From positions 40,463 to 104,462 of the forward strand of contig JAUVGH010000001.1 of NCBI GenBank assembly GCA_030593885.1: 64,000 bases of DNA, in the 5' to 3' direction. Below the pieces are notes generated by a model. That model made no database searches. It was not told the origin of the DNA and saw nothing but the letters and a program-made list of their open reading frames with translations. Position 1 is the stretch's first letter. Every line of letters begins with the position of its first letter. Below, in pieces: positions 17,529-57,284 of the stretch. Both the position numbers and the translations under genes were made by a program. Source of the DNA: Methanomassiliicoccales archaeon (GTDB lineage Archaea > Thermoplasmatota > Thermoplasmata > RBG-16-68-12 > SOIM01).

Positions 17529-17551
17529 GATTGGTCCTATTGAAAGGGTTC

Positions 17552-27890: not shown

Positions 27891-30800
27891 ATGGGTAGAA
27901 CAAGTGGCCGGCGCCTTCTCGTCTCGGTTCTGAGCTTCTTCATGCTATTCGGCAGTTTCGCCGTGCTCAACTCAGATGAAGTTATTGCCCAAGGAGACGC
28001 CGTATTGGACGTCGGATGCCTAGACGAACCCAAGACCAGGAACATACTCGCTGCAAATGACGTGTGGACCCACAATGTTCTTGATCCAGTTTACGACTCC
28101 GTAACCAAGCCAGATCCCAAGACAGAAGAGGTGAAACCCTACATATTGAAAGGAACGGATGCGGACGGGGACGGCGTTTTCGGTGACAACGAGTACGGAG
28201 TCTTCACGAGCATTCCTGGCAAACCTCTGGAAGTTACGGCCTTCTACGACTTCAACGGCGTCCTGTTCCATGACGGATATCAGGCGACCGTTGAGGATCT
28301 TTTATTCACGTACCACATGGTCGCACTTGACCCAAGGACCATCTCACTGGACGTATTGAAGGACAAGAACAACCTGCCCGGATCGAACTACAGCATCACA
28401 AGATGGCTGCATCTCAATGAGCTGAAAGGGTTCGATCCACTTGACACTCTCAATAATGGGGATTGGGGCATTACGACCAAGGACTACTCTGACCCCGGCT
28501 ACAATACGAGTTTGAGAGCCGCTGTGCATATCAAACAGCAAGCCCCATACTGGGATTTCTTCCGATCTACCCTGTCTCGGACCTTCCTACCCGCCTATCT
28601 CTGGCAGGGAACTGGATGCATCTATGAGAAGGACACCTCAACCTTCAAGTGCGGCATTCACAAGAACAGGGATGGATCCGCCATGGATTCTTTCGGCATT
28701 GCATACGATCCCGATACCGGGAATGGCGTGCCCCAGAGCGACGGCAGGAAGTTCGACTACAGTCTTGCCGAGAGCTGGGACATTCCTGATGAATATGTGA
28801 TCGGAACCGGACCTTTCACATTTGACAGATGGGTGCCAGGACAGTTCGCAAGTCTAGACAGAAACGACGACTATTTCGTTGGCGAATCCTATCTCCACAA
28901 GCCATACATCGAGGGAATGCTCTTCAAGGTGTTCAAGACCACCCAGACAGCCGTCTTCGCCCTCAGGAGCGGGGACATTGACTACATCGCAATGTCGATC
29001 CCACCTGCATTCGTTCCAGAACTTCTCAATGATCACAGCATCAGTATTGTCTCAACGTCACCCAAAGGGTTCTCTTATCTATCTTACAATATGAGAGGTG
29101 AGCCTTTCGGATACCAAGGCGGAGATCCAAGGAATCCTGACGTGGGCAAGAACTTCCGACAGGCTGTTGCCCACCTCATCGACAAGAAGACCATCGTCAC
29201 CAGCCTGCTTCAGAACTACGGTATCGTCGCTGACGGTCCTGTGAGCCCAACGCTGGCCAGATGGTACAACAGCTCACTGCCCCAGCTCCCGTACGACCCA
29301 GGGGCGGCCGACGCTCTTCTTGACACTTATGATGCGTGGGACTCCTCAGACGGTCCATGCACCAACGCTAACCCGAGTGGGTGCAGGACATTCCCGGTGG
29401 TGGGGAACAGCGAGATTGAGATATTGACCCCTAACGCCGACTACGACCCCATCAGGGCTGCCGCAGGTACTCTCATCGCACAAGCAATGAACGAAGCTGG
29501 AATAAACGCCAGATCGGTTCCAACAGCCTTTGGTGAGATCGTAATGAGAATTGACGCGCGAGACTTCCAGATGTTCATCCTCGGATGGAGGATAGGTTCG
29601 GATCCGCCGGACTACTTCCATGCCTTCTTCTACTCAAGGAACGCGGCCCAGGGTCAGAACTATCCCGGATATCAGAGCGACGAGTTCGACGTGCTAAGTC
29701 TTCAGACTCGTCAAGAACTGGACGGGCCCACGCAGGTATCTCTTGTTAAGAAAGCACAAGGTGTTCTAGCCTTCGATAGGCCATATGATGTTCTGTACTT
29801 CAGGACAATCATCGAGGTATACAGATCGGACAGATTTGTCAACTGGACGGTAGGCGCCGCGGGAACCATCTTCAGCTACTGGTCATGGCTGGGCATTCAT
29901 GAACCACCGTCCGACCCCCTTCGAATCACGACTTCAATTCAGACCGATGTGGCGACGGACAGCACAGCTGCTTTCAAAGCAACCGTCACCGACCCCAATG
30001 GGAACGCCCTTTGGGGTGCAACGGTCAGTGTCTATGTTGATCCTTTTTATGGGGAATTCGTGCTTGGTCCTCAGAGGTCGAACCTGGTGAGTGGACAGAC
30101 GGATACGAACGGGGACTTGGTTGTGACCTACGTCCCGCCCACTCTTGCAGCCAACGACACAGCAAGAACAATCTTCGTCTATGCTTGGGCCACTCATCCC
30201 GGACATAATGAATCAAGAAATGCCACAGAGACCATTGTGGTTCATCCAGTTGGCGAGAACTTTCTCTCTTTGTTGATCGATTTGCCCGATGGAGACCTGG
30301 TGCCCGAGGGGAGTTCAGCCTCTATTGAGATTCAGGTTGTTGACCAAGACCAGAACCCGGCCAGTGGTGCGAATGTTTACATTGTTTCAACACCACCGGC
30401 GACGATCAATCCCAGTAACGGGACCACGGACGCAAACGGCTACATCAGTGGCCTGCCGGGCGTTATTTTCTTCTCTCCCAATGTTACCGGTGATACTCAA
30501 CATCTTATATCGATTATCGCCCAGAAGCTAGGCTATGATAGCGCAGTCGAGAGTCTGTTTCTGACCGTCAAGGACAATCGAAAGCCAAATGTGTCAATTA
30601 CTTCCATCTCCCCAGGTCAGGAACTATCTGGAGAGGTTAACATCACAGGGGATGCCAGCGATGAGGATGGGGATGACGATATCATCAGGGTTGAAGTTCG
30701 AATCGATGGTGGCAGTTGGCAGAACGCAACCGGCACATCACGCTGGAGTTTCTTGTTGGACACGTCAGATCTCTCCAACGGAGACCACATGCTCAGCTTC

Positions 30801-31079
30801 AGGGCGTACGATGGCACTGACTATTCGACAACTGTTGAGGTTCCAATCACCGTGGACAATGAAGTTCTTACAGATTGTCCAGATGGGACCGAGTGTGGAG
30901 GAATATTGCCTATCATTGGTTGGCTGGGCTTGATCGCTGTCATCGCAGTCCTGTTGGTCGCTTCTGTTATTTTGTTGGCAAAGGCAAGAAAGAAAACCGA
31001 ATCCGGTGAATCAACTGAAGAGCCAGAATCTTCCGAAGAACCCACAATCTCAACCCCAGAGGAAGAGCACAAGGATTAA
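27891..31079 (+). CDS. ABC transporter substrate-binding protein (family 5, Opp/Dpp type) with C-terminal Ig-like domains and TM anchor; paralog 1
   Basis: 1062 aa. Signal/anchor LLVSVLSFFMLFGSFAV. SBP_bac_5-like core (..FHDGYQATVEDLLFTY.., ..GTGPFTFDRWVPGQ.., ..DFQMFILGWRIGSDPPDYF..). About 300 aa of beta-rich C-terminal domains, then TM ILPIIGWLGLIAVIAVLLVASVILL and an acidic tail. Confidence 0.88.
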   Translation: MGRTSGRRLLVSVLSFFMLFGSFAVLNSDEVIAQGDAVLDVGCLDEPKTRNILAANDVWTHNVLDPVYDSVTKPDPKTEEVKPYILKGTDADGDGVFGDNEYGVFTSIPGKPLEVTAFYDFNGVLFHDGYQATVEDLLFTYHMVALDPRTISLDVLKDKNNLPGSNYSITRWLHLNELKGFDPLDTLNNGDWGITTKDYSDPGYNTSLRAAVHIKQQAPYWDFFRSTLSRTFLPAYLWQGTGCIYEKDTSTFKCGIHKNRDGSAMDSFGIAYDPDTGNGVPQSDGRKFDYSLAESWDIPDEYVIGTGPFTFDRWVPGQFASLDRNDDYFVGESYLHKPYIEGMLFKVFKTTQTAVFALRSGDIDYIAMSIPPAFVPELLNDHSISIVSTSPKGFSYLSYNMRGEPFGYQGGDPRNPDVGKNFRQAVAHLIDKKTIVTSLLQNYGIVADGPVSPTLARWYNSSLPQLPYDPGAADALLDTYDAWDSSDGPCTNANPSGCRTFPVVGNSEIEILTPNADYDPIRAAAGTLIAQAMNEAGINARSVPTAFGEIVMRIDARDFQMFILGWRIGSDPPDYFHAFFYSRNAAQGQNYPGYQSDEFDVLSLQTRQELDGPTQVSLVKKAQGVLAFDRPYDVLYFRTIIEVYRSDRFVNWTVGAAGTIFSYWSWLGIHEPPSDPLRITTSIQTDVATDSTAAFKATVTDPNGNALWGATVSVYVDPFYGEFVLGPQRSNLVSGQTDTNGDLVVTYVPPTLAANDTARTIFVYAWATHPGHNESRNATETIVVHPVGENFLSLLIDLPDGDLVPEGSSASIEIQVVDQDQNPASGANVYIVSTPPATINPSNGTTDANGYISGLPGVIFFSPNVTGDTQHLISIIAQKLGYDSAVESLFLTVKDNRKPNVSITSISPGQELSGEVNITGDASDEDGDDDIIRVEVRIDGGSWQNATGTSRWSFLLDTSDLSNGDHMLSFRAYDGTDYSTTVEVPITVDNEVLTDCPDGTECGGILPIIGWLGLIAVIAVLLVASVILLAKARKKTESGESTEEPESSEEPTISTPEEEHKD
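28245..28432 (+). repeat. Near-identical 188-nt tract shared with the paralogous binding-protein gene (partner at 32821-33008)
   Basis: Hand alignment gives 2 mismatches in 188 nt (28304 a/g, 28422 c/t). The flanks on both sides are clearly more diverged. Confidence 0.85.
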
Positions 31080-31085
31080 ATATCA

Positions 31086-31115
31086 CACAAAAGCACCTAC
31101 AAATGAGCTTATATA
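31086..31115 (+). promoter_or_regulatory. Promoter-like element with TATA box, shared with 32306-32336
   Basis: CACAAAAGCACCTACAAATGAGCTTATATA lies ~36 nt upstream of ATG 31151. The second copy reads CACAAAACCGCTTACAAATTTCCTTATATAT. Confidence 0.4.
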
Positions 31116-31150
31116 GTTCGTAGGACCAATATGTTCTCAGAGAGGAAATA

Positions 31151-32182
31151 ATGCGACCCAACGCGGTCATTCTCACTGTTAGTGTTGCCTTTGTTCTAGC
31201 CCTCTCGCTTTTCTTCATTCCTCAAGAATCCAGTGCTTCCTCGCCTGGATTCATCTCACCCCCCACTCCCGACATCGCCGGAAGCCCGCAAGATTTCTAC
31301 ACCGTGACATTCCTCTCCAATGGTGGAACATTTGAGGCTGGATCGGTCTTCTATCTTGAAGGCCAGGTAGATGGGAACTCCGTTGATGGGCTGCACATAA
31401 CAGTCCTGATGGAAGATCCCTACGGGGCTCAGTATCGCAATCTGACGCGGGCTGAATCCGACGGTATCTGGGTAGCCATGTTCCAGCCGGCCGAAGACGT
31501 TGGTGGCAACTTCACCGTTACCGCCTCTGCCGATGCGATCGATGTGAGCAAGGAGGACGACACCATACAGATTGACGTCGTTGTTCCGCCGCCAGAGGAA
31601 GAAGAAGAGGGAATTCCAGTCGTTTACTTCCAGCTGGGAGCGCTTTTTGCCGCCTTCGCGTCCATGGCCGTCGCGAGCACCGAATCCGCCGGCTTCTCGC
31701 TCTTCAACATCTTCGCCTTCCCGTTGTACTCGAGGATAAAGAAGGACGAGGTCCTGGACCATTTCGTTCGGGGTCAGATCTACGGATACATCGTTTCCAA
31801 CCCGGGCAAGCATTACAATTCGATCAGGCAGAAATTGCAGGTCACCAACGGTACCTTATCCTATCATCTGCGGACATTGGAGGTCCAGGGATTCATCAAA
31901 TCAAGGAAGGAGAGCATCTACAGGCGTTTCTATCCCATAGAGATGAAGTTCCCTCGTGACAAGGGTGTCAAACTGAGCGACATGCAGATAACCATTCTTG
32001 CGGCTCTTAGGCGCAGGCCGGCCCCGACCCAGAAAGACATCGCGTCTGATCTCGGAATAAGTCAGCAGGTGGCCAGTTACAACCTCAGGATACTGACCCA
32101 AAAGGGATTCGTGCTGGTTCGCAAAGAGGGCCGCAAGAGGATCTACTACCAGGATGATTCGGGATCGCCGACCGGATTGTGA
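31151..32182 (+). CDS. Membrane-tethered transcription regulator: extracellular domain, TM segment and two cytoplasmic wHTH domains
   Basis: N-terminal signal/anchor ILTVSVAFVLALSLFFI. About 170-aa beta-rich segment, an acidic linker PPPEEEEEG, and a hydrophobic segment VVYFQLGALFAAFASMAVA..FSLFNIFAFPL. Two ArsR/MarR-like wHTH units follow: GQIYGYIVSNPGKHYNSIRQKLQVTNGTLSYHLRTLEVQGFIKSRKE and ITILAALRRRPAPTQKDIASDLGISQQVASYNLRILTQKGFVLVRKEG. Confidence 0.75.
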   Translation: MRPNAVILTVSVAFVLALSLFFIPQESSASSPGFISPPTPDIAGSPQDFYTVTFLSNGGTFEAGSVFYLEGQVDGNSVDGLHITVLMEDPYGAQYRNLTRAESDGIWVAMFQPAEDVGGNFTVTASADAIDVSKEDDTIQIDVVVPPPEEEEEGIPVVYFQLGALFAAFASMAVASTESAGFSLFNIFAFPLYSRIKKDEVLDHFVRGQIYGYIVSNPGKHYNSIRQKLQVTNGTLSYHLRTLEVQGFIKSRKESIYRRFYPIEMKFPRDKGVKLSDMQITILAALRRRPAPTQKDIASDLGISQQVASYNLRILTQKGFVLVRKEGRKRIYYQDDSGSPTGL

Positions 32183-32305
32183 CCTTTCAGATATGTTCTC
32201 AGGCACAGGCTTATCCTCAAGAGCCTATGCTTCCCAAAGACCGTCACCAACTTCAACAGATACCCAGAAATCCACAAAACCCACAACCACAATGGTTATA
32301 TAATA

Positions 32306-32336
32306 CACAAAACCGCTTACAAATTTCCTTATATAT
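32306..32336 (+). promoter_or_regulatory. Second copy of the shared promoter-like element
   Basis: CACAAAACCGCTTACAAATTTCCTTATATAT lies upstream of the second binding-protein gene. Confidence 0.4.
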
Positions 32337-32451
32337 CCCACCCAGCATAAACAGAAACAGTATATTCAGTTGACAAGAAAAAGTATTTAATGTCAACCCA
32401 ATATGCCACTCTCACTCTGCCTTCTTGGCGGTCAGGAGAGGAGGAATGGAA

Positions 32452-35298
32452 ATGGGCGGAAGAAACAGCCGAAGAGGAATAGCCTCTATTGTGAGCGTAA
32501 TACTTGTGTTCTCCATGTTGCTCGGTTCGTTTCCCCTGTATGTCGCTGGGGACAACACGAGAGGGGACGAAGACGTGATTCTGAGAATAGGAGCACAGGA
32601 CGAACCCAAGACCAGGAACATACTCGCATCTGGCGACGTATGGACCCAGAACGTTCTGGGACCGGTATACGATTCTGTGACCCAGATGAATCCGGAGACC
32701 GAGGAATTGATGCCGTACATCCTGAAAGGTACTGATCTCAACGGAGACGGGATATTCCAGGACAATGAGTACGGGGAATTCAGAAGCATAGAGGGAAAAC
32801 CTAAGGAAGTGACTGCCTTTTACGACTTCAACGGCGTCCTGTTCCATGACGGATATCAGGCGACCGTTGAGGATCTTTTGTTCACGTACCACATGGTCGC
32901 ACTTGACCCAAGGACCATCTCACTGGACGTATTGAAGGACAAGAACAACCTGCCCGGATCGAACTACAGCATCACAAGATGGCTGCATCTCAATGAGTTG
33001 AAAGGGTTTGACACACTTGATGCTCCCATTGGCGATTGGGGCATTACGACCAGGGACTACACTGACCCCAGCTACGACACGAGCCTGAGAGCTGCCGTTC
33101 ATTTCAAGCAACAGGCCCCTTATGCCAACTTCTACAGAGCCACAATGTCTTGGAGTGCATATCCCAGACATATCTGGGAGGGTACTGGTTGCATCTATGA
33201 GAAGGACACCTCGACCTTCAAGTGTGACATTCACAAGAACCCAGACGGATCCGCCATGGACTCCTTCGGCATTGCCTATGATTCCCTTACCGGGAACGGC
33301 GTGCCTGACACCGATTCCAGGAAGTTCGAGTACAGTCTGGCCGAGAGCTGGGACATTCCGGACGAATACGTGATTGGAACCGGCGCGTTCATGTTCGACA
33401 AGTGGGTCCCCGGTCAGTTCTCCAGTCTTACCAGGTTCGAAGATTTCTACACAGGTGAAGGATACATCCACAAGCCGTACATCAACGGGATGCTCTTCAA
33501 GGTGTTCAAGACCACCCAGACAGCGGTCTTCGCCCTCAGGAGCGGGGACGTTGACTACATCGCATGGTCGATCCCACCTGCATTCGTTCCCGAACTGCTC
33601 AACGACGCCAACATCGGCATCACAAGCACGGCCGAAAAGGGTTTCTTCTATCTATCTTACAATATGAGAGAGGAGCCTTTCGGATATCCAGGTGGAGATA
33701 CGACGAACGACCTGGGCAAGAACTTCCGACAGGCCGTTGCGCACTTGATCGACAAGAAGACCATTGTCACGAGCTTGTTGCAGAACTATGGCATCGTCGC
33801 TGACGGTCCTGTGAGCCCGACATTGGCCCGTTGGTACAATAGCTCATTGCCGCAGTTCCCGTTCGATCCAGTCAAAGCTGACACGTTGCTGGATACGTAC
33901 GATCCTTGGGATTCTTCGGACGGTCCATGCAACAAAGATAACCCCGGCCGATGTAGGTCCTTCCCTGTCATTGGGAACAGCCAGATCGAGATTTTGACTC
34001 CGAATGCGGAGTATGATCCAATCAGGGCTGCTGCCGGAACTCTAATCGCGCAGGCAATGAACGATGCGGGGATAAATGCCTACTCTGAGCCTACCGCCTT
34101 CGGTAAGATCGTTACGAGAATTGACGCACGAGACTTCCAGATGTTCATTCTCGGATGGAGGATAGGTTCGGATCCACCGGATTACTTCCACGCTTTCTTC
34201 TACTCAAGGAATGCGGCTCAGGGTCAGAACTATCCTGGATATCAAAGCGACGAGTTCGACCAGCTGATACTTGATGCTAGAGAAGAGCTCAATCCACAGA
34301 AACAAGTCGACCTCATCAAGACGGCACAGGGTGTGCTGGCCTATGACCGACCATACGACGTTCTGTACTTCAGGACCAACATCGAGGCCTACAGGTCTGA
34401 CAAGTTCACCAACTGGACGGTAGGCGCCGCGGGAACCATCTTCAGCTACTGGTCATGGCTGGGCATTCACCGGCCTCCGCCGGATCCGTTGCGAATCACA
34501 TCATCGATCCAGACCGCTGTCAAGACGGACAAGACGGCCAAGCTCATTGCGACCGTTAGGGAACCGGACGGCGATGTTCTTCAAGGGGCCACAGTTGAGG
34601 CATACGTTGCTTCCACGGATGGAGATTTCGTGCTGGGAACGACAGTATCGAACTATGTAACTGGCACCACCGACTTGAATGGGCAATTCAAGGTGACCTA
34701 TCAACCGCCGATCTTAGCGAAAAACGACACTCAACGAACGATGTTCATTTATACAAAGGCAACGCACGTGGACTATCCTGAATCAAGGAACGCTACGATT
34801 ACAATCGTAGTGCATCCGCCCGGCGGTAAGTTCCTATCCATGCTGGTGAACTTGTTGGGTGGAGATTTGGTGGAAGAAGGAAGACCGACGCTGATGAGCG
34901 TCAAGATCACCGATCAGGACGAGAATCCGGTCTATGGCGCGAGCGTTGTCATCAGTTCAGATCCTCCGGCGGAGATCACTCCCAGCAGTGGAACCACCGA
35001 TACGAACGGTTTCATCAACAGCGTCGAGAACATCGAATTCATAGCTCCGGCAGTGGATGACAATCAAGACCATTTGATCACCATTACCGCCACTTTAGCC
35101 GACCACGAACCTACTGACAGGAACTTCACCATGACCGTGGCGGCCGAGCCCCCCCCTCCGGGCGGTGACTTCCCCTGGCTCATTGTCGGAGCGGGGATTG
35201 CCGTTGCTGGCGTGGTGGCGGGCATTGTCGCCTTCATGATGATGAAAGGTGGAAAGAGGAAGAGAAGGCGCAAGATCCAGAAGCTGAAGGAAGGGTAG
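32452..35298 (+). CDS. ABC transporter substrate-binding protein (family 5) with C-terminal Ig-like domains and TM anchor; paralog 2
   Basis: Collinear with paralog 1. ATG 32452 gives MGGRNSRRGIASIV.., matching MGRTSGRRLLVSV.. of paralog 1, and follows GGAGAGGAGG. The track uses TTG 32425. C-terminal TM WLIVGAGIAVAGVVAGIVAFMMM plus a K/R tail. Confidence 0.88.
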   Translation: MGGRNSRRGIASIVSVILVFSMLLGSFPLYVAGDNTRGDEDVILRIGAQDEPKTRNILASGDVWTQNVLGPVYDSVTQMNPETEELMPYILKGTDLNGDGIFQDNEYGEFRSIEGKPKEVTAFYDFNGVLFHDGYQATVEDLLFTYHMVALDPRTISLDVLKDKNNLPGSNYSITRWLHLNELKGFDTLDAPIGDWGITTRDYTDPSYDTSLRAAVHFKQQAPYANFYRATMSWSAYPRHIWEGTGCIYEKDTSTFKCDIHKNPDGSAMDSFGIAYDSLTGNGVPDTDSRKFEYSLAESWDIPDEYVIGTGAFMFDKWVPGQFSSLTRFEDFYTGEGYIHKPYINGMLFKVFKTTQTAVFALRSGDVDYIAWSIPPAFVPELLNDANIGITSTAEKGFFYLSYNMREEPFGYPGGDTTNDLGKNFRQAVAHLIDKKTIVTSLLQNYGIVADGPVSPTLARWYNSSLPQFPFDPVKADTLLDTYDPWDSSDGPCNKDNPGRCRSFPVIGNSQIEILTPNAEYDPIRAAAGTLIAQAMNDAGINAYSEPTAFGKIVTRIDARDFQMFILGWRIGSDPPDYFHAFFYSRNAAQGQNYPGYQSDEFDQLILDAREELNPQKQVDLIKTAQGVLAYDRPYDVLYFRTNIEAYRSDKFTNWTVGAAGTIFSYWSWLGIHRPPPDPLRITSSIQTAVKTDKTAKLIATVREPDGDVLQGATVEAYVASTDGDFVLGTTVSNYVTGTTDLNGQFKVTYQPPILAKNDTQRTMFIYTKATHVDYPESRNATITIVVHPPGGKFLSMLVNLLGGDLVEEGRPTLMSVKITDQDENPVYGASVVISSDPPAEITPSSGTTDTNGFINSVENIEFIAPAVDDNQDHLITITATLADHEPTDRNFTMTVAAEPPPPGGDFPWLIVGAGIAVAGVVAGIVAFMMMKGGKRKRRRKIQKLKEG
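32821..33008 (+). repeat. Partner of the near-identical 188-nt tract at 28245-28432
   Basis: See 28245-28432. Confidence 0.85.
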
Positions 35299-35337
35299 GT
35301 ACTCCCCTTCTCTCAGAAGTAGGCCGGAGATGAACAA

Positions 35338-37068
35338 TTGAGGTTGCGCACATTCCTCTTCAAGAGAGCCATACACACCATAATCACACTGCTGGTCGTA
35401 CTTGTTCTGCTCTTCATAATCTTCCGACTGATGCCCGGAGACCCGACAAGGTTCTTCATCGAGCCCGGTCAGACCCAGGATACGCGAGATAGGCTCCTGG
35501 TGAAGTTCGGTTTCAGGCACTGGGTGGACGCCCCTGGCGATTACCGGGAGGCCTCCATATCTGAGGCAGACCTCCCCGGCGCATATCTGATCACAATCAA
35601 CGTGGTAGATGAAGACGGGAACACTGCCGAGCTTTATGCGACCTACAACGTGCGGTGGCAATATGCCTCAATCAAAGACGATCCTCTCCAGGTCCATGGC
35701 TCTGTTGACCCCTTGCTGGTGAACTTCCTTGAAGACGGAGGTTTGGAGTTCTTCAACGAACCCATGGAGAGGCTTGGGACTGCTGTTGTCGGCGACACTG
35801 TAACGGTCTACGCCAACCTCGATGGCTCACCTCCATCCAATGTGGAAGTTCGGGCGAATGTGACCTACATAAGCCCGACCGGAGCGACCGAGGATTTCAT
35901 GCCTGACGTTCTTTTCACTGCATCTGGGCAGAGGTACTCTTCCGGTCCGATAACACCCGACAAGGCCGGCCACTATGATGTAGCCATCACAGCACGGGAT
36001 CTGGACGGAATTGAATCAATGACGATTCATTACGCATTCGCAGCAAACCTTCCGAATTCTCAGCTTCTACCTTTCTCCTTGATCGCCGATGAAGGCGGGA
36101 TCTTCACCTACCCGGACGAATTCAACGTGGCCTCGGGAAGGGTCAGCATAGCCATTGTGTCCGATGACGCCAAGATCCTGAACACCAACAAAACGGTCGT
36201 CGCAACTGTCGTTCGACCTGACGCAAAGGTGAATGTCGTTGATTTGTATCACCCCGAGGTAACCGCCGAGAGGAACATCTTCGAACAGTTCTGGGTGTAC
36301 TTCACGTCCATGTTGCAGCTGGACTTTGGCAAGTCGTTTTTCTCTCAAAGACCGGTGTGGACCGAAATCCAGGAGAAGGCCCCGCCCACCATCTTGCTCT
36401 TCGGCTCTGCACTGATACTTCAGGCCGTGTTCGGCGTACTGATAGGCGTCCTCCTTGCCTGGAGAAGGGGGACAAGGATGGAGCTGAGTGCCGTCGTTAT
36501 CTCTCTTTTCTTCTACTCGATACCCCTGTTCTGGTTCGGGATTATTCTGATATGGGCCTTCGCTTTCCAGCTGGGCTGGTTCCCGTTCGGAGGCATGGTA
36601 ACCCCGGAGTTAGCGTCTCAAGGATATCCGGACATATGGGCAGAGATTACAGACATAGGCGCTCACATGGTGCTTCCATTAATCACCTTGATGATGGTCG
36701 GTCTCGCTTTCACCATTCTTCTGATGAGGAACTCAATGCTCGAGGTCCTCGGGGAGGATTATATCACCACCGCCAAGGCAAAGGGATTGAGCGAAAGGAA
36801 GGTGATGTACAAACACGCCGGCAGGAACGCGATGCTTCCGGTCGTGACCGTGATTGCGATGTCGGTGGGCAGCGTTGTCAGTGGCGGCGTTCTCACAGAG
36901 ACCATATTCTCCTGGCCGGGCATGGGATTCTACCTCGTCCAATCAACCCTGCAACAGGACTATCCCGCCGTTCAAGGAGTCTTCTTTCTTCTGGCGGTTA
37001 TGACTATTCTTGCTAACGTGGTTGCGGACGTGCTGTACGCCTTTATGGACCCAAGGGTGAGGTTGTAG
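35338..37068 (+). CDS. ABC permease, OppB/DppB type, with a large extracytoplasmic insertion
   Basis: TTG start. OppB-like N-terminus RAIHTIITLLVVLVLLFIIFRLMPGDP. Canonical ..LQLDFGKSFFSQRPVWTEI.. and EAA-loop region (ITTAKAKGLSERKVMYKHAGRNAMLP). About 250 extra residues lie between TM1 and the DFGKS motif. Confidence 0.88.
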   Translation: MRLRTFLFKRAIHTIITLLVVLVLLFIIFRLMPGDPTRFFIEPGQTQDTRDRLLVKFGFRHWVDAPGDYREASISEADLPGAYLITINVVDEDGNTAELYATYNVRWQYASIKDDPLQVHGSVDPLLVNFLEDGGLEFFNEPMERLGTAVVGDTVTVYANLDGSPPSNVEVRANVTYISPTGATEDFMPDVLFTASGQRYSSGPITPDKAGHYDVAITARDLDGIESMTIHYAFAANLPNSQLLPFSLIADEGGIFTYPDEFNVASGRVSIAIVSDDAKILNTNKTVVATVVRPDAKVNVVDLYHPEVTAERNIFEQFWVYFTSMLQLDFGKSFFSQRPVWTEIQEKAPPTILLFGSALILQAVFGVLIGVLLAWRRGTRMELSAVVISLFFYSIPLFWFGIILIWAFAFQLGWFPFGGMVTPELASQGYPDIWAEITDIGAHMVLPLITLMMVGLAFTILLMRNSMLEVLGEDYITTAKAKGLSERKVMYKHAGRNAMLPVVTVIAMSVGSVVSGGVLTETIFSWPGMGFYLVQSTLQQDYPAVQGVFFLLAVMTILANVVADVLYAFMDPRVRL

Positions 37069-40000
37069 ATGGTAGATACTGCCAGGCTCAAAGAGAAGAT
37101 CCGAGCGTATCGGAAGGTCTTCAAGCAGAACTGGGACCTGTTCAAGGCAAGCAAGATCGGCGTGATAGGAGTCATCATCGTGTTCTTCTTCCTCGGAATG
37201 GCCATCATCGCTCCTTTCATGAACCTCAGGGACCCCATCAACTGGAGGGCACCAGATGCAGACATAATCCGGGTGAACTCTTGGTGGGGCGTTGGAAGGA
37301 ACGTTTCACAAACACAATGGAATGCGGGCGAACCTATCAACAAGACCGTGTCCTTCCGGGTAAAACCCGCAGGCGCCCAGGCGCTGGAATCTGACAGGGT
37401 GTACTTCACTTCAGGGAATCGATTATTCTCTTTAAAACCGGGCGATGCTGGATCCTATTGGACCGATTGGGACACTCCTGAGAACTTTGATTTCAGGCAC
37501 ATCACCGATGCCCACTTTTCCACTGACGTCGTGGTGGCCAACTTTGGGAACCAGTACGATTCGGCCGAGGTGGATTACCTCCTCGGAGTGGGTACAAACG
37601 ACGGTTACATCTACATAATAGAGGACTACGATGGCGGCCCGACCATTCTCAAGGAATCGACTCCGTCGGTGGCGAACGGACGCGTGTACTACGAGCAGCT
37701 GGACAGTGCGATAACATCTACGGCCCTCTACAGCAATCCGGGGTCTGGAAGGAGCCCCGTGGAGAAGTACTTCTTTGGGACCGAGGGCGGATGGCTTTAT
37801 GCATATTCGGTGACCAAGTTCGACAATGAGAATTGGGTTTTCGGCTCGGGAAACTGGTCCACGATGCCTCTGGGAGAAGGTGAGATCAGGCCGTCCCCGA
37901 GGACCAACTTCAGCATGGTCTACGATTCCATCAATGACAAGATGGTGCTGTTCGGAGGTAACGATGGGCTCCTCAACGATGAGACCTGGATATACGATCC
38001 GGTGACACAGGTTTGGACCAGGATTGAGACAGACTGGCATCCCTCGGCCAGATACGGTCACTCCATGGCCTTTGATTCCAGCACCGAGAAGGTCGTACTG
38101 TTCGGAGGCGTCATCGACAACTCGGCCAATCCATGGAGCAATGAAACCTGGATTTTCGACGTGGATGCAAGCAATTGGACCCAGGTGAGCATCCCACCAG
38201 GTCTTTGGGGAAGGGCCTTCTCCGCAATGGCCTTCGACGAGGGTACTGGTATGACGGTGATGTACGGTGGAGATCATTGGTCCAATGAGACATGGACTTA
38301 TTCTGACGGACTGGGATGGATAAACAGAACGTCGGGCATTTTCCCCACTGGCAGATATGGACACGCAATGACATATGACAGCATCAGCGGTCGAGTTGTC
38401 ATGGTCGGTGGAAGCGACGGCGGCAACGAGACCTGGACTTACAATTCATCTACTCACGTATGGTCAGACCTGATCCCGCCCGCTGGACCGTCCCCGAGGA
38501 TGTTCCACGACATTGTTTTCGACGTTGCCAACAACCGCACTCTGATGTTCGGTGGGGATACTGGTTGGGATGAGACCTGGGCCTTTGATGGTGGTGCCTG
38601 GACCGAAATCACTCCTATATCAAACCTCTCGGGAAGGACCGGGCACTCGATGGTCTACGACTCGAACAGGAGTGAGATATTTCTCTTCGGCGGCGACGAC
38701 CGGACCTTCAGCATGCTGTGGTACCGGCAGTTGAGCACAGAGGATCCCATATTGATGGCGGGTTTCCCTCTTAGCACACCCACAGACCCCAATTACTCCC
38801 CATCACTGAACGCCAATGGGACCATGATCTTTGTCAACGATGGAGGACTTCATGCGATCAACGCATTCGACGGTACTGATGCATGGGGCACACCATCCCT
38901 TGACATGGGTCCGGAATGGACCAACACCCCGGTAGTGGCTGTCCCAGGTCTGATAGGAACCGATTTCACGGAGGCCGTTTACGCGACGACCGATCACGGC
39001 TGGATATATGCCCGGTATGCGGACAACGGCAGTTCCCTTGCATCTTGGGAGGATCGGGGACTGGACGACAATATGACCGCCACCGATGGAGGAATCCCGG
39101 TAATGATCGACCTGGTGACGTTCGACGGTGGCGTCCTCACAACACCGGACTTCTTTGGGGACCTCATTTATCTGGGCTCGAGCTCAGGTCATCTTTACGC
39201 GATCCGCAGGGACCCGTTGCCAGGCTTTCCCGCTGGGTCCACGGTTTGGATCTACTCCGATAGGATTTTTATCAACGCCGGCTTCGCCTACACCGGGGGT
39301 GTGAGATTCGTAAGAGAATCGCGGTTACTGTTCGCCGTTGGCTATGAGGGATATACCACTCCAGGGAATTTGGATGATGATATAGGGACTCTGTTCATCC
39401 TCGGAGAGGACGGTAGCCTCTCCTGGAGGAAGACCGTCGATGGCAGGATCGGAGGTACGCCCACGATCTGGAAGGACAATGTGGGAACCCATCCGACACC
39501 CAGCGTCTGGTTCGGAACGAGTAAGGGCATCGCAAACGCATATTCTTCCACTGGCGAGAACATGGCGCCTCTTCCGCCAGGATGTTACGATTCCGGTAAT
39601 TGCTACACACTTGGGACGGACTCACAAGGCAGGGACATCTTCAGCCAGTTGATGTGGGGGTCGCAGGTCGCTCTCACGGTCGGACTTCTGGCAGCTGGAG
39701 GCTCCATAGGTATCGGCACGATCATTGGTTTGGTATCCGGATACTCGGGCGGTAGGATCGATTCGGTTCTGATGAGGTTCACTGATGTCATTCTGGTTCT
39801 ACCCGGTTTGCCCTTCCTCATCATTCTCGCCGCAGTGCTCGGTCCGAGCTACTGGAACATCATCTTCGTGCTGACCATCATTGGGTGGCCAGGTACTGCA
39901 AGGGTCATTCGTTCGGAGGTCCTTTCTTTGAAGGAAAGGCCTTTCATCGATTCCGCAAGGGTCACGGGTGCAAGCAACATCCGCATAATGTTCAAACATC

Positions 40001-40275
40001 TGGCACCCAACGTGATGCCCCTGGCCTTCCTGTACATGACTCTCGCGGTGAGCGGATCCATCCTCGCGGAGGCGGCGCTGAGCTTCCTTGGTCTTGGAGA
40101 TGTGAACACCGCCAGCTGGGGCCTGATGCTCCAGGCGGTCCAGACCGAGAACGTGCTTGCAGCGTGGTGGTGGTTGATGCCGCCCGGTATCGCTATCACA
40201 TTCATCTCATTGGCATTCTATCTCATCGGCAGGGCATTCGAACAGATCGTCAACCCGCGTCTGAGGAAGAGGTGA
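37069..40275 (+). CDS. ABC permease, OppC/DppC type, with a ~790-aa Kelch/PQQ-like beta-propeller ectodomain inserted after TM1
   Basis: ATG immediately follows the OppB stop. TM1 is IGVIGVIIVFFFLGMAIIAPF. Six Kelch-like blades (e.g. RYGHSMAFDSSTEKVVLFGG, GRYGHAMTYDSISGRVVMVGG, GRTGHSMVYDSNRSEIFLFGG). The canonical OppC core starts at LGTDSQGRDIFSQLMWG (39610 onward), with the EAA region SARVTGASNIRIMFKHLAPNV. Confidence 0.88.
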   Translation: MVDTARLKEKIRAYRKVFKQNWDLFKASKIGVIGVIIVFFFLGMAIIAPFMNLRDPINWRAPDADIIRVNSWWGVGRNVSQTQWNAGEPINKTVSFRVKPAGAQALESDRVYFTSGNRLFSLKPGDAGSYWTDWDTPENFDFRHITDAHFSTDVVVANFGNQYDSAEVDYLLGVGTNDGYIYIIEDYDGGPTILKESTPSVANGRVYYEQLDSAITSTALYSNPGSGRSPVEKYFFGTEGGWLYAYSVTKFDNENWVFGSGNWSTMPLGEGEIRPSPRTNFSMVYDSINDKMVLFGGNDGLLNDETWIYDPVTQVWTRIETDWHPSARYGHSMAFDSSTEKVVLFGGVIDNSANPWSNETWIFDVDASNWTQVSIPPGLWGRAFSAMAFDEGTGMTVMYGGDHWSNETWTYSDGLGWINRTSGIFPTGRYGHAMTYDSISGRVVMVGGSDGGNETWTYNSSTHVWSDLIPPAGPSPRMFHDIVFDVANNRTLMFGGDTGWDETWAFDGGAWTEITPISNLSGRTGHSMVYDSNRSEIFLFGGDDRTFSMLWYRQLSTEDPILMAGFPLSTPTDPNYSPSLNANGTMIFVNDGGLHAINAFDGTDAWGTPSLDMGPEWTNTPVVAVPGLIGTDFTEAVYATTDHGWIYARYADNGSSLASWEDRGLDDNMTATDGGIPVMIDLVTFDGGVLTTPDFFGDLIYLGSSSGHLYAIRRDPLPGFPAGSTVWIYSDRIFINAGFAYTGGVRFVRESRLLFAVGYEGYTTPGNLDDDIGTLFILGEDGSLSWRKTVDGRIGGTPTIWKDNVGTHPTPSVWFGTSKGIANAYSSTGENMAPLPPGCYDSGNCYTLGTDSQGRDIFSQLMWGSQVALTVGLLAAGGSIGIGTIIGLVSGYSGGRIDSVLMRFTDVILVLPGLPFLIILAAVLGPSYWNIIFVLTIIGWPGTARVIRSEVLSLKERPFIDSARVTGASNIRIMFKHLAPNVMPLAFLYMTLAVSGSILAEAALSFLGLGDVNTASWGLMLQAVQTENVLAAWWWLMPPGIAITFISLAFYLIGRAFEQIVNPRLRKR

Positions 40276-40284
40276 TCAGAGAAT

Positions 40285-41568
40285 ATGGTGATGCTGGACA
40301 TAAGGAACCTGAGAGTTTACTTCGAGATCCTGAAGGGCAAGGTGAAGGCCGTTGACGGAGTCTCGTTCCAGTTGGACCGAGGTGAGACGATGGGCCTGGT
40401 CGGCGAGAGCGGGTGCGGGAAGACGACCACAGCATTCGCAATCACCCGGCTGCTCCCCTTCAACGGACATGTCGTCGGTGGAGAGATATTGTTCAACGAC
40501 ATGGTGCTGGCAAGGGCGGACATGGCCACCGAGATGCTGGAGCTCTTGGAGCGCGAGAGATGGCTGCCCCGGGTCGAGACCCTCTTCGAGAGAAGGCAGA
40601 ACGCAATGCAGGTCCTCAAGGAGAAGGGACTCGGCGAGATGCCGGGGGAATCAGAGATCCTCCTTGCCGAGGAAGAGATTTTCCTGGAGGAGGTCGGTGA
40701 TATCCTAGCTATTAAGGATAGGGTTGCACCTGAAGAGCTAAAAGAGATGCTCTCTAAGGCCGGCAAGGCCGAGACAACCGGGTTCTTCGCCGATAGGAGA
40801 AAGAGGAAGATAGAGAAGGAGATTGAGGCAAAAATGACCGCCATCAGGTGGTCAGAGATTTCCATGATTTTCCAGAGTGCTATGAATGCGTTCAATCCTG
40901 TTTACCGCGTCGGTGATCAGATCGCGGAAGCACTTCTCACTCACGAGGACATGTCAAAGGACGAGGCCCACCAGAAGGTACTTGAACTGTTCGATCTCGT
41001 TGGACTTAAGCCCGACAGGGTCACTGGATACCCGCACGAGTTCAGCGGAGGAATGAGGCAAAGAGCCATCATCGCCATGGCACTGGCACTGAACCCACAG
41101 TTGATAATCGCCGATGAGCCCACAACTGCTCTGGACGTAATTATGCAGGACCGAATACTCGCCGAGATACGCGACCTGCAGAAGGAGATGCACATGGCCA
41201 TGATAATCATCACTCACGACATATCCGTGGTCGCGGAGGTCTCTGAGAAGATCGCAATCATGTACGGCGGGAAGTTGTTCGAGCAGGGGGACATAGTCTC
41301 AATATTCGAGAACCCGGCCAATCCTTACACCATCGGCCTCACTGGCGCCTTCCCGAGCATCAAGGGGAAGAAGAAGAGACTGAAGTCTATACCAGGTTCC
41401 CCTCCGGACCTTGCGAATCCCCCGCTTGGATGCGTGTTCCACCCCCGGTGCAAGCTGGCGCAGGACATCTGCAAGGAGAAGATGCCCCCGACCATCGAGG
41501 TCGCAAAGAATCACAGATCATATTGTCATTTCGCAGAGGAGATATACACTGGAAAGATGAAGGTCTAG
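40285..41568 (+). CDS. ABC ATPase, OppD/DppD type, with a ~100-aa helical insertion
   Basis: Walker A GESGCGKTT, signature FSGGMRQR, Walker B LIIADEPTTALD, and the oligopeptide-ATPase C-terminal motif CVFHPRC..C. The extra charged segment is ARADMATEMLELLERERW..RRKRKIEKEIEAKMTA. Confidence 0.88.
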   Translation: MVMLDIRNLRVYFEILKGKVKAVDGVSFQLDRGETMGLVGESGCGKTTTAFAITRLLPFNGHVVGGEILFNDMVLARADMATEMLELLERERWLPRVETLFERRQNAMQVLKEKGLGEMPGESEILLAEEEIFLEEVGDILAIKDRVAPEELKEMLSKAGKAETTGFFADRRKRKIEKEIEAKMTAIRWSEISMIFQSAMNAFNPVYRVGDQIAEALLTHEDMSKDEAHQKVLELFDLVGLKPDRVTGYPHEFSGGMRQRAIIAMALALNPQLIIADEPTTALDVIMQDRILAEIRDLQKEMHMAMIIITHDISVVAEVSEKIAIMYGGKLFEQGDIVSIFENPANPYTIGLTGAFPSIKGKKKRLKSIPGSPPDLANPPLGCVFHPRCKLAQDICKEKMPPTIEVAKNHRSYCHFAEEIYTGKMKV

Positions 41569-41570
41569 AC

Positions 41571-42773
41571 ATGGAAGCAGAAGTCACGGATGCTACAACC
41601 GAGGAAGTCGAGAAGGAACCCGGAGTAGTCTGGGAGGTGAAGAACCTCACCAAACTGTTCCCCATAAAGGCAGGCTTCATCGCATCCCTTATGGGCAAGG
41701 AGGTGCACGTCCACGCGGTCAACGACGTGGAATTCAAGATCTATGACAGGGAGATCCTTGGCATCGTGGGTGAGAGCGGGTGCGGCAAGACGACGTGCGG
41801 AAGGCTTTTGGTCCGTCTCGAGACACCTACAAGGGGCACCATGCAGTTCAACGGTCAGGAGATCGGCGGGCTCAAGGGGAGGGAGCTGAAGAGATTCAGA
41901 AGGAGCGTCCAGATGATCTTCCAGGACCCGTATGAATCCCTCAACCCCAGGCTCTCTGTCTTTGCCACCATCGCAGAGCCTCTAATAGTCCACGGCGTCG
42001 GCGACACCATCGAGGATAGGGAGGAGCTCGTTCGGAAGGCGCTTGAATATGCGGAGCTCAAACCCCCGGAGGAGTTCATGTACAGGTTTCCGCACGAACT
42101 CAGCGGCGGCCAGAGACAGCGCGTTGCCATTGCCCGAACACTGGTGCTGAGGCCCCAGTTCATAGTCGCGGACGAACCGGTCAGCATGCTTGATGTTTCC
42201 ATCAGGGCCGGGATCATGAACCTCATGCTCAACCTTCGGGAGGAGTACGGTATCCCCTTCATGTTCATCAGCCACGACGTCTCGGTGACGAGATACATGA
42301 GCGACAGGATAGGCGTCATGTATCTGGGAGATTTCGCGGAACTGGCCGGGTCAGAAGATATCATCAAGAACCCGATGCATCCGTATACCGAGGCGCTCCT
42401 ATCCGCCGTTCCCGTTCCCGACCCGACCGCAAAGCATGGTAGAGTGAAGATCAAAGGAGACCTGCCCAGTCCTATCAACCTGCCACCCGGCTGCACCTTC
42501 CATCCGAGATGCTTGTACAAGAAGGACATCTGCAAGTCCCAGGCCCCTGAGTTCAAGGAGGTCGAACCGGGCCATTTCGTTCACTGTCACTTTGCCGGTG
42601 AGCTGCCCATTGTGAAGCCTGACGACGAGTACGTTACCGAGGAGTTATGCAAGTACTGCAACGCCACCATAAAGAAAGGCATGGCCTCGGTACAGCATCC
42701 TTGTGGAGCCAACTATCATGAGGAATGTGCGGACCGGGTGAAGGCATGCACGGTCTGCGGTAAGAAATTCTAG
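41571..42773 (+). CDS. ABC ATPase, OppF/DppF type, with a C-terminal Cys/His-rich extension
   Basis: ATG 41571 lies 2 nt after the OppD stop; the track start at 41430 overlaps OppD. Walker A GESGCGKTT, LSGGQRQR, FIVADEPVSMLD, CTFHPRC..C..HFVHC. The extra C-terminus is CKYC..x13..C..H..EC..x6..CTVC. Confidence 0.88.
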   Translation: MEAEVTDATTEEVEKEPGVVWEVKNLTKLFPIKAGFIASLMGKEVHVHAVNDVEFKIYDREILGIVGESGCGKTTCGRLLVRLETPTRGTMQFNGQEIGGLKGRELKRFRRSVQMIFQDPYESLNPRLSVFATIAEPLIVHGVGDTIEDREELVRKALEYAELKPPEEFMYRFPHELSGGQRQRVAIARTLVLRPQFIVADEPVSMLDVSIRAGIMNLMLNLREEYGIPFMFISHDVSVTRYMSDRIGVMYLGDFAELAGSEDIIKNPMHPYTEALLSAVPVPDPTAKHGRVKIKGDLPSPINLPPGCTFHPRCLYKKDICKSQAPEFKEVEPGHFVHCHFAGELPIVKPDDEYVTEELCKYCNATIKKGMASVQHPCGANYHEECADRVKACTVCGKKF

Positions 42774-42781
42774 GTGTTCGC

Positions 42782-43348
42782 GTGAACAAACTCGTTCGTT
42801 TAATCGGCATCTCCTTCATAATCATCTCATTGCTCTCATTCGGGCTTCTATACGTCACTTCGGTCAACTACCTGAACTACACCGAGACCGCTTCAGAGAT
42901 CCCGCAGAACATAGAGATATCCGAGGTCCGCATTCCGCTCATCACTGACGAGTTGCAGGACCAGATCGTGGAGGTCCTTTTTACAGTCTCTAATCCGTCC
43001 AGTCTGACCATTTACGTTACCAGCATCGAGGCATATGTCTACATGGACAACTATTCCGATATCCGCCCCTTCCTGGAGAAGATGAATGAGATACTCGTTG
43101 GCATAGGCCAGTTCAGTTTCCAGAAGGCCGATTCCCACATCATCCGTCCGGGAGAGTCGATGACCATTCCCGTCCGCATGACTGTCAGCGGTGGCTCAGT
43201 CTTCATGTCGATTCTCAACACCACTTCTGACGGGAAATACTATCCATATGTCTTCGGGACCATGTGGTACACATTTGAGTACATAGATCTGATCGAAGTA
43301 GTAAGAGGAGTGTCATTCCTTGGAAGAGCTGGAGTCGAGCCCTATTGA
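42782..43348 (+). CDS. TM-anchored beta-sandwich protein, possibly LEA14/WHy-like; function unknown
   Basis: GTG start. N-terminal TM LIGISFIIISLLSFGLLYV, then a beta-rich body (VEVLFTVSNPSSLTIYVTSIEAYVYMDN). The family call is tentative. Confidence 0.5.
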   Translation: MNKLVRLIGISFIIISLLSFGLLYVTSVNYLNYTETASEIPQNIEISEVRIPLITDELQDQIVEVLFTVSNPSSLTIYVTSIEAYVYMDNYSDIRPFLEKMNEILVGIGQFSFQKADSHIIRPGESMTIPVRMTVSGGSVFMSILNTTSDGKYYPYVFGTMWYTFEYIDLIEVVRGVSFLGRAGVEPY

Positions 43349-43382
43349 ATTGAAACCCGTTAAGAGGTCCTACGTTGTCCTC

Positions 43383-55753: not shown

Positions 55754-55754
55754 A

Positions 55755-57281: not shown

Positions 57282-57284
57282 TAA

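Follow-up and report, generated by a model that had tools for sequence, protein, structure and literature searches.

We found that a 64,000-nucleotide stretch of DNA from a Methanomassiliicoccales archaeon (GenBank assembly GCA_030593885.1, contig JAUVGH010000001.1, positions 40,463 to 104,462 of the forward strand; hereafter the window, whose own numbering is used throughout) encodes an Opp/Dpp ATP-binding cassette (ABC) importer of the PepT family, type I, in which both permeases carry large folded ectodomains. The cassette covers 27891-43922 on the + strand and consists of nine closely spaced open reading frames (ORFs): two genes for substrate-binding proteins (SBP1 and SBP2) with a membrane-tethered winged helix-turn-helix (wHTH) regulator between them, an OppB-like and an OppC-like permease, an OppD-like and an OppF-like ATPase, and two small membrane proteins that we call dn1 and dn2. 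From OppB on, the intergenic gaps are 0, 9, 2 and 8 nucleotides (nt), and dn1 and dn2 overlap by up to 29 nt at the TTG start used for dn2. Judged by its sequence, the core is an Opp/Dpp (PepT, TC 3.A.1.5-type) importer with all catalytic and coupling motifs, and thus belongs to a known family. The decorated architecture, on the other hand, was not found described in domain libraries, public annotation or open-access papers, as a first-pass annotation of the same DNA had supposed of the full set of parts; searches of open-access papers turned up no description of permease-borne propellers or of this cassette, and public names are only generic (‘ABC transporter permease subunit’, ‘peptide/nickel transport system permease’ or hypothetical).

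The first-pass annotation had described a complete and tightly packed SBP/SBP/OppB/OppC/OppD/OppF locus, and all seven ORFs lie on the + strand where it had put them, except for the starts of OppF and SBP2. Domain scans with Pfam and NCBIfam recovered in them the domains that it had named. Its set of six or seven genes stands as far as the parts listed are concerned, and grows to eight core genes with dn1 and dn2, which had been missed. Its view that every component is decorated holds, and the modules are real and conserved. Ordinary for such systems are a four-Cys motif in both ATPases and the C-terminal TM anchor of the binding proteins.

Several domain matches define the transport core. BPD_transp_1 (PF00528) is found with 141 bits in OppB and 101 bits in OppC, and the EAA-type coupling-loop motifs EDYITTAKAKG and ERPFIDSARVTG are seen in the permease sequences. 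The N-terminal permease model scores 26.4 in OppB, above its cut-off of 23.8, and OppC_N reaches 21.4 bits in OppC, just below its cut-off of 23.9. Both ATPases contain PF00005 and the oligo_HPY domain PF08352 (69 and 73 bits, cut-off 27.1), together with Walker A (GESGCGKT), signature (SGGMRQR or SGGQRQR) and Walker B (ADEPT or ADEPV) motifs, and SBP_bac_5 (PF00496) is matched with 159 bits by SBP1 and 157 bits by SBP2 (cut-off 32.4). The best NCBIfam models are Opp2B, Opp4B and DppB for OppB, and Opp4C, Opp2C and NikC for OppC. A peptide, nickel or opine assignment at the equivalog level fails, every NCBIfam equivalog lying far below its cut-off (OppB has 248 bits against 350 for Opp2B, and SBP1 87 bits against 650 for Opp4A).

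The OppB-like permease (35338-37068, +; 576 residues from a TTG start) contains a 255-residue insertion (residues 58-312; 35509-36273, +), the element in which the first-pass annotation had recognized a beta-rich loop of about 250 residues. Alignment of this permease to its PDB homologs, DppB of E. coli (8z1v) and OppB of M. tuberculosis (8j5q), starts only at residue ~300. In an AlphaFold2 (AF2) model built from 44 homologs, DSSP assigns the first transmembrane segment (TM1) to residues 3-31, helices to 36-40 and 47-56, beta domains to 60-311 and a further helix to 314-326, which gives the order TM1, scoop helices, insertion and then the standard five-helix BPD_transp_1 core. Residues 60-311 are all-beta, with a predicted local distance difference test score (pLDDT) that exceeds 80 for the most part and 90 in many blocks of ten residues. 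Foldseek matches the insertion to immunoglobulin (Ig), macroglobulin, BIg and cupredoxin-like sandwiches and the core to DppB and OppB. The model accordingly predicts that the insertion forms tandem Ig-like domains that point outward, directly after the scoop helices in the TM1-TM2 loop. The scoop motif of E. coli DppB comprises residues 32-62 between TM1 and alpha3, and plugs or seals the SBP cleft and the outward-facing cavity (PMC12136057). No homology to the SBP stalk or to the ectodomain of the regulator was detectable for the Ig insertion with hhalign (probability at most 3%). The NCBI call for an identical OppB (P0121, 545 residues) begins at M32, 31 residues short, and omits TM1; since homologs span all 576 residues from the TTG, this call, which leaves out window 35338-35430, is probably truncated.

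The OppC-like permease (37069-40275, +; 1068 residues) is decorated in the same loop with a much larger ectodomain of ~790 residues (residues ~55-845; 37231-39603, +). It starts with OppC_N (19-52) and TM1 (30-48), and the BPD_transp_1 core follows the ectodomain at ~845-1068 (Pfam 883-1067); E. coli DppC aligns only from residue 835. The central part, residues ~263-555 (37855-38733, +), is a Kelch region (Pfam Kelch E 7e-35; PF24681 121 bits against a cut-off of 50, plus Kelch_3 and Kelch_6). In the AF2 model, which was built from 17 sequences and is all-beta with pLDDT mostly above 80 over ~170-830, six four-strand groups span 263-555 and correspond to six Kelch blades, and the top Foldseek matches of this region are the MKLN1, LZTR1 and Keap1 propellers, at a target TM-score of ~0.75. 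The Pfam match and the modelled blades bear out the propeller ectodomain of ~790 residues that the first-pass annotation had postulated. Further strand groups assigned by DSSP suggest about three blades at 83-259 and five at 586-833. Counted in this way, from strand groups and not from coordinates, the remainder of the ectodomain (residues 55-262 and 556-840) would make up an outer propeller of about eight blades, and the Kelch propeller would be inserted in it between blades three and four. PQQ_2 (PF13360) is matched weakly in the OppC of the window (23.6 bits, cut-off 27.6) and is listed in relatives, in some of them faintly. Among 1.84 billion proteins, the C-terminal half of the outer propeller finds ~15 representative clusters at E <= 1e-10, most of them of 760-1180 residues, that is, OppC fusions.

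Furthermore, the same ectodomain occurs in the window as a protein of its own. A free-standing paralog of 815 residues, outside the operon (60552-62999, +), is 31% identical to OppC residues 32-827 (BLASTP, E 6e-108); it has one N-terminal TM segment, Kelch and PQQ_2 domains and the nested Kelch arrangement of OppC, and it stops exactly where TM2 of OppC would start. A Nuo-like membrane-arm gene set (53786-60295) immediately precedes its gene. Orthologs were found in two other loci, as P0034 in L012, in the same Nuo-like neighbourhood, and as P0039 in L011. Because such a paralog exists, the double propeller is an autonomous surface module in these genomes, and either OppC gained it by fusion or the free protein is a truncated copy derived from OppC. 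In L011, a giant S8 protease gene is located near the free propeller gene.

Next, we compared the cassette with related loci from NCBI, ENA, JGI and Logan, which come from different samples and assemblers and are 45-93% identical. The same eight-gene order was found in ten of ten loci (the window, L001, L002, L006, L007, L008, L009, L010, L093 and L094), with L007, L093 and L094 cut at the 5′ end so that their upstream genes are only partly seen. The order is wHTH regulator (~330 residues), SBP (900-1150), OppB (544-576), OppC, OppD (422-462), OppF, dn1 (~190) and dn2 (155-205). In wider searches, full-length Kelch-bearing OppC homologs form ~15 clusters (61-93% identity) and long OppB homologs of 530-580 residues at least 120 clusters (44-100% identity), and the named sources are Thermoplasmata, Thermoplasmatota, Methanomassiliicoccales, Methanobacteriota and Euryarchaeota metagenome-assembled genomes (MAGs) and one ‘Ca. 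Geothermarchaeales’ MAG. By these sequence comparisons, the cassette is a lineage-specific family of which the window is one member among many. A metagenome scan that started from the OppD alignment and used the generic patterns VGESGCGK and [IV]SMIFQ[SG]A yielded 80 loci (L013-L092), none of which has any of seven cassette-specific modules by tblastn.

Two of the loci add observations on how the cassette is carried. In the complete chromosome CP070767.1 (Methanobacteriota archaeon bin24; L003 9968-12826), an OppC of 712 residues without the N-terminal part stands with an OppD fragment of 234 residues; SBP, OppF, dn1 and dn2 are not nearby, and the long OppB of the same genome (P0138) lies elsewhere, an arrangement suggestive of a cassette that has been rearranged or is decaying. 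In L008 (1-3943), an Opp operon of ordinary size (344, 319, 323 and 495 residues) lies a few kb upstream of the decorated cassette. As this locus carries both operons, the decorated system coexists with standard Opp transporters and does not replace them.

The loci fall into two subtypes that differ in the Kelch propeller and in OppF. In the K-type (the window, L001, L002, L006, L010 and L093), OppC has 1066-1106 residues with Kelch and OppF has 400-403 residues with a Cys/His finger. In the P-type (L008, L009 and L094), OppC has 751-756 residues without Kelch and OppF has 346 residues without the finger. The two halves of the outer propeller abut in the P-type OppC, and relative to L007, L008, L009 and L094 the Kelch propeller is a clean indel. 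L007 is intermediate: its OppC is of the P-type, yet its OppF bears the finger, and its OppD of 462 residues contains, besides the charged insertion shared by the family, a second insertion of ~40 residues (locus ~4900-5050) that lies in the helical subdomain and has a Zn-ribbon-like motif, CPIC...CPVH.

The accessory modules and the transport cores change at very different rates. Between the window and L006, identity is 84-88% for the OppB core against 35% for the Ig insertion, 90% for the OppC transmembrane domain (TMD) against 48-57% for the ectodomain, and 84-86% for the OppD core against 55% for its insertion. TM1 and the scoop of OppB are 88% identical in this comparison, and the Ig insertion that directly follows them is the fastest-evolving module. 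Taking L006 and L010 together, accessory modules are 29-57% and cores 69-90% identical to those of the window. The accessory modules are thus kept everywhere yet change at two to three times the rate of the cores.

On the cytoplasmic side, the OppD-like ATPase (40285-41568, +; 427 residues) contains an insertion of exactly 102 residues (82-183; 40528-40833, +), since the alignment passes from 81 to 184 in the window protein while M. tuberculosis Rv1281c runs from 82 to 83; the first-pass annotation had estimated ~100 charged residues here. Charged residues make up 43% of the insertion, which is presumably helical, immediately precedes the Q-loop strand and is present in all aligned loci. OppD also has four cysteines, C383, C389, C396 and C414, spaced 6/7/18 and invariant in the OppD alignment. 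The same spacing is found in E. coli DppD, in which C284, C290, C297 and C315 bind a [4Fe-4S] cluster (PMC12136057), and the OppF spacing is 6/7/18 compared to 6/7/17 in DppF. Because the spacings are equal or within one residue, the C-x6-C-x7-C-x18-C motif is a family trait and not a decoration, and we regard it in both ATPases as the ordinary Opp/Dpp site, predicted to bind a [4Fe-4S] cluster.

The OppF-like ATPase (41571-42773, +; 400 residues) continues after a normal C-terminal domain into a linker and a Cys/His finger, putatively RING/PHD-like, with eight ligands (42606-42770, +), in the pattern CxxC-x12-[HC]xC-x4-HxxC-x6-CxxC. The Pfam model Prok-RING_1 (PF14446) is matched with E 3e-5 and 24.2 bits, below its cut-off of 29.1. 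The finger, which the first-pass annotation had noticed as a Cys/His element, is kept with all eight ligands in eight loci (the window, L001, L002, L004, L006, L007, L010 and L093) and absent in L008, L009 and L094. The end of the OppF gene had been placed correctly in that annotation and its start, at 41430, had not: the ORF from 41430 overlaps OppD by 139 nt, whereas M48 corresponds to 41571, two nt past the OppD stop. Because of this tight spacing, and because the public collection carries the 400-residue form, 41571 is the true start.

The two small genes close the operon. The dn1 product (42782-43348, +; 188 residues) consists of a single N-terminal TM segment and ~150 residues of beta-rich ectodomain, without any Pfam match, and its gene lies directly 3′ of OppF in every locus examined. 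A profile search returned 52 clusters, all ‘hypothetical’, of 182-197 residues except for two shorter ones (163 and 103 residues); their sources, where named, are only Thermoplasmata and one Geothermarchaeales MAG, and the E-values fall sharply from 1e-45 to 1e-11. On the basis of these matches, dn1 is an orphan family and a marker of the cassette. In the dn2 product (43320-43922, +; ~200 residues), four TM segments are followed by a charged tail on the cytoplasmic side, in which the motif LPSEEE...TKRWHDML is found. A tail of the form L(P/T)xEEE...(K/R)xWH(D/E/A)xL ends dn2 in the window, L001, L006, L007, L010 and L093, the six finger-bearing loci in which dn2 was read, and is absent, like the finger, in L008, L009 and L094. 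This co-variation suggests a contact between OppF and dn2.

Both binding proteins are anchored and stalked. SBP1 (27891-31079, +; 1062 residues) is an extra paralogous copy upstream of the regulator gene and is composed of an N-terminal signal or TM segment, a core (~30-670; SBP_bac_5 at 123-584, Pfam, E 2e-46), two Big_1-like Ig domains (Big_1 at ~809-852), Big_7 (899-968), TM 1012-1030 and an acidic tail. SBP2, the core binding-protein gene of the family, probably starts at the ATG at 32446, which is preceded by GGAGG (32446-35298, +; ORF 32425-35298); it has an N-terminal hydrophobic signal, the core, two Ig-like stalk domains and a C-terminal TM at 919-937 (numbered from 32425). Cores are ~640 residues long in both proteins, which are paralogs of 71% identity. 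Of the Ig-like extensions of ~300 residues with a TM anchor that the first-pass annotation had given to both, the anchor is present in each and the length does not apply to SBP2, the stalk of which is ~225 residues long and lacks Big_7. A C-terminal TM anchor is usual on Opp-class binding proteins in archaea. SBP2 is collinear with the single SBP of all other loci, and an SBP gene copy upstream of the regulator is also found in L001 and L006, pointing to a duplication in the clade of the window.

The closest solved relatives of the binding proteins in a PDB sequence search are the peptide binders AppA (1xoc) and DppA. We dropped a substrate call from SBP residues, as R383 and D436, the residues of DppA that bind the peptide termini, could not be aligned unambiguously. 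A stretch of 66 residues (VTAFYDFNG...NELKGF) is identical in SBP1 and SBP2 (28236-28433 and 32812-33009), whereas the DNA is only ~79% identical there. A recent gene conversion between the two genes was rejected on this ground; protein identity in spite of such DNA divergence reflects purifying selection, and the stretch is, by this comparison, a strongly constrained surface or interface of the SBP N-lobe. Upstream of SBP2, a palindrome (GTTGACA-N15-TGTCAAC, 32369-32397; 0.02 expected by chance) is found downstream of a TATA-like box (32329-32338) and ahead of the SBP2 start. We do not claim it as an operator, since only L002, a close relative, carries it unchanged; L001 differs at one position and L006 lacks it.

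The regulator (31151-32182, +; 343 residues) has hydrophobic segments at 5-23 and 157-175 by hydropathy, and its order is N-terminal signal or TM, Ig-like ectodomain (~30-150), acidic linker, TM 157-175 and two cytoplasmic wHTH domains. The first of these is HTH_HVO_0163_N (PF24266; 207-265, 48.5 bits, cut-off 31) and the second, at 275-330, is of the MarR/ArsR type; together with the TM segments they confirm the membrane-tethered double-wHTH protein that the first-pass annotation had placed between the SBP genes. The regulator also stands beside the SBP gene in L001, L006, L008, L009, L010 and L094. When profiles are compared with hhalign, its ectodomain aligns to the second Ig domain of the SBP stalk at a probability of 94% (E 2e-7), and on this profile match the two are homologous. 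Bacterial ToxR/CadC-type regulators and archaeal HVO_0163-like HTH proteins resemble it in joining a DNA-binding wHTH through a TM segment to an extracytoplasmic sensor. Its topology is reversed relative to ToxR/CadC, with the sensor N-terminal and the wHTH C-terminal, and it differs from both groups in having two wHTH domains and an Ig sensor homologous to the SBP stalk. In the literature searched, no function is described for any PF24266 member.

We then set the system against known transporters. The closest solved structures are DppBCDF (8z1v) and OppBCDF (8z21) of E. coli and OppABCD (8j5q) and DppABCD (8wd9) of M. tuberculosis. These systems share with the window the subunit set and its order A, B, C, D, F, the BPD_transp_1 cores, EAA-type loops, OppC_N TM1, oligo_HPY, the four-Cys motif and the scoop helices. 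The window differs from them in the 255-residue OppB Ig tandem and the 790-residue OppC double propeller, both in TM1-TM2 loops, the 102-residue insertion of OppD, the Zn finger of OppF, the Ig-stalked and TM-anchored SBPs, and the two extra membrane proteins and membrane-tethered regulator in the operon.

Permeases of type I ABC importers have short outward loops only, with MalF-P2 as the known exception. To our knowledge, MalF P2 is the only well-studied precedent for a decorated importer TMD. This Ig-like permease loop of the E. coli MalFGK2-E system is ~3 nm long and binds the SBP MalE throughout the cycle (PMC6906923). In the OppB of the window, too, a type I importer permease bears a folded Ig-like domain on its extracytoplasmic side. 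MalF P2, however, belongs to another ABC subfamily, is a single domain of ~180 residues between TM3 and TM4 and serves a soluble SBP, and the MalF system has no propeller and no decorated partner TMD or ATPases of the kind seen here. The OppB insertion lies in the TM1-TM2 loop and has no sequence relation to MalF P2; it may bind an SBP, as its position next to the scoop motif suggests. Because loop, subfamily and fold content differ, the ectodomains are analogues of MalF P2 and not members of its group. The Opp systems of Mollicutes (NCBIfam MMSYN1_0165-0168) likewise have enlarged subunits (OppB, OppD and OppF) in wall-less cells and an OppD insertion between Walker A and the Q-loop, and the MMSYN1 OppD match (window residues 125-412 against model 248-530) begins inside the insertion of the window protein. 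They bear neither propellers nor Ig ectodomains, and none of the accessory genes is common to both systems. The likeness is convergent at most. Membership in this group was rejected on scores of 106, 131, 280 and 272 bits for OppB, OppC, OppD and OppF against cut-offs of 350, 370, 740 and 800.

Taken as a whole, these features are best explained, in a reading that we hold tentatively and put just short of an even chance, by a lineage-specific peptide importer of Thermoplasmata with SBP-docking ectodomains, an added cytoplasmic layer and a tethered regulator. The substrate would be oligopeptides that giant surface subtilases set free and that feed amino-acid fermentation. Lacking a closed periplasm, the cell would keep its SBPs tethered to the membrane on stalks of two Ig domains, and the OppB Ig tandem and the OppC propeller or propellers would build an extracellular docking bay that recruits a tethered SBP and holds it over the pore, an enlarged analogue of the MalF-P2 loop. 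On the inner face, the OppD insertion, the OppF zinc finger and the dn2 tail may form an additional regulatory or assembly layer, as suggested by the joint presence and absence of finger and tail, and dn1 and dn2 would be extra subunits of the complex. The wHTH protein would control the operon, and its Ig ectodomain may read the state of the surface assembly.

The neighbourhood of the cassette adds to the case for peptides, as do the peptide-binding relatives of the SBPs. An S8 subtilase of 1764 residues with PKD and TSP3 repeats is encoded at 11808-17102 (+) and an AFOR at 23637-25610; in L008 an S8 protease of more than 2100 residues follows directly after the cassette, and in L010 an AFOR lies near it. 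Adjoining the subtilase gene of the window is an ORF of 1576 residues (6973-11703, +) without a Pfam match at E <= 1e-4, and the products of both are probably surface proteins. At 17531-19321 (+), the window encodes an ABCE1/RLI-type protein with Fer4_RLI and two ABC domains, which along with the HVO_-type HTH domains and the AFOR confirms an archaeal origin of the DNA. Divergent from the operon, a double-zinc-ribbon protein (Pfam DZR; 26707-27702, -; 331 residues) is kept at the same position in L006 and L010 and may belong to the K-type system.

A number of observations weigh against the docking importer. Contact between the ectodomains and the SBP is argued for by position, the modelled insertion adjoining the scoop motif, and the AF2 model of OppC is unreliable in the TMD, where pLDDT falls below 50. 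Kelch-plus and Kelch-minus subtypes do not differ in the length or domain order of their SBPs, and no SBP indel co-varying with the presence of Kelch was found across the compared loci, so that Kelch has no obvious co-varying SBP partner. Judging from the free-standing paralog, the double propeller can function without the transporter. No more than about four deep lineages underlie the co-variation of finger and tail. Sugars are a frequent cargo of archaeal Opp-class systems, and equivalents of DppA R383 and D436 are not clearly conserved. Finally, the fast evolution of the modules, as read from the alignments, fits a spacer or shield as well as or better than precise docking. Such a role, in which ectodomains and stalks only raise or protect the transporter in the thick glycocalyx or S-layer-like surface of a wall-less archaeon and diverge through exposure, for example to viruses, is nonetheless unlikely in our estimate. 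It would account for the gap in identity between modules and cores and for the reuse of the same Ig type in the SBP stalk and the regulator, and many surface proteins of archaea have Ig or propeller folds. However, the insertion points are non-random, both being in the TM1-TM2 loop and the OppB one directly after the scoop, both insertions are kept in every family member down to ~45% overall identity, and the decoration of the cytoplasmic subunits is left unexplained by a surface shield.

The existence of the complete ectodomain as an autonomous anchored protein, in the same genome and in relatives, implies a function of its own. It speaks in favour of a capture-and-import arrangement, in which the OppC double propeller, perhaps with the OppB Ig tandem, would bind or process a surface polymer or a partner enzyme such as a subtilase and hand the products directly to the tethered SBPs and the pore; Kelch and PQQ-type propellers are, as the Foldseek matches illustrate, typical platforms for binding ligands or proteins, and giant S8 proteases are in the neighbourhood. 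We consider this improbable, given that domain scans detected no catalytic or carbohydrate-binding family in any insertion, that Kelch is missing from the whole P-type subtype with everything else kept, and that the protease genes lie outside the conserved cassette. The capture or processing of polymers proposed in the first-pass annotation is not directly supported, in view of the lack of a detected catalytic domain and of the Kelch-free subtype. An importer working as proposed above for a different cargo, oligosaccharides or another organic solute, as in several archaeal and Thermotoga Opp-class systems, likewise has a low probability. The unclear conservation of the peptide-terminus residues of DppA, the uniformly low equivalog scores, the occurrence of Kelch domains in sugar-active proteins and a weak NANM match in the free-standing paralog speak for it, while the surrounding genes point to proteolysis and amino-acid fermentation, the conserved neighbourhood is free of glycoside hydrolases, and the best solved SBP matches are peptide binders. 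That the long genes come from misjoined contigs or fused ORFs has a negligible probability. Nothing was found in its favour beyond the fact that the window stems from a MAG: the ORFs are uninterrupted, AF2 folds the OppB and OppC insertions confidently, and the same architecture and junctions recur across the ten loci in spite of their divergence. Because these loci were assembled independently, misassembly at the insertion borders is ruled out, and the comparative genomics put forward as a check in the first-pass annotation shows the modules together in these loci, whose named sources are Thermoplasmata, Methanomassiliicoccales or Methanobacteriota MAGs and one ‘Geothermarchaeales’ MAG.

Going beyond the docking importer, OppBCDF, dn1 and dn2, the stalked SBPs and the tethered transcription factor could form one supercomplex, an ABC importer class not recognised before. 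Its permease-borne double propeller and Ig tower would capture a macromolecule or a partner enzyme at the surface and channel the products to the pore, and the finger, the tail and the OppD insertion would relay transport activity to the regulator. A single machine would then couple capture at the surface with uptake and gene control where no periplasm exists. We regard this more elaborate scheme as a long shot.

Collectively, these results describe an importer in which both permeases have large folded ectodomains, of ~250 and ~790 residues, in contrast to the short-loop importers of textbooks. They also correct the annotation of genes that are publicly named only as generic permeases or hypothetical proteins, provide dn1 as a marker gene for finding the system, and define a target for structural work that is relevant to specialists of ABC transporters and of the archaeal cell surface. 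If the ectodomains dock the tethered SBP, the system would show how SBP-dependent import is organised without a periplasm. Sediment Thermoplasmata have been implicated in protein degradation, and if the ectodomains instead bind substrate or enzymes, extracellular proteolysis would be linked directly to uptake in these archaea.

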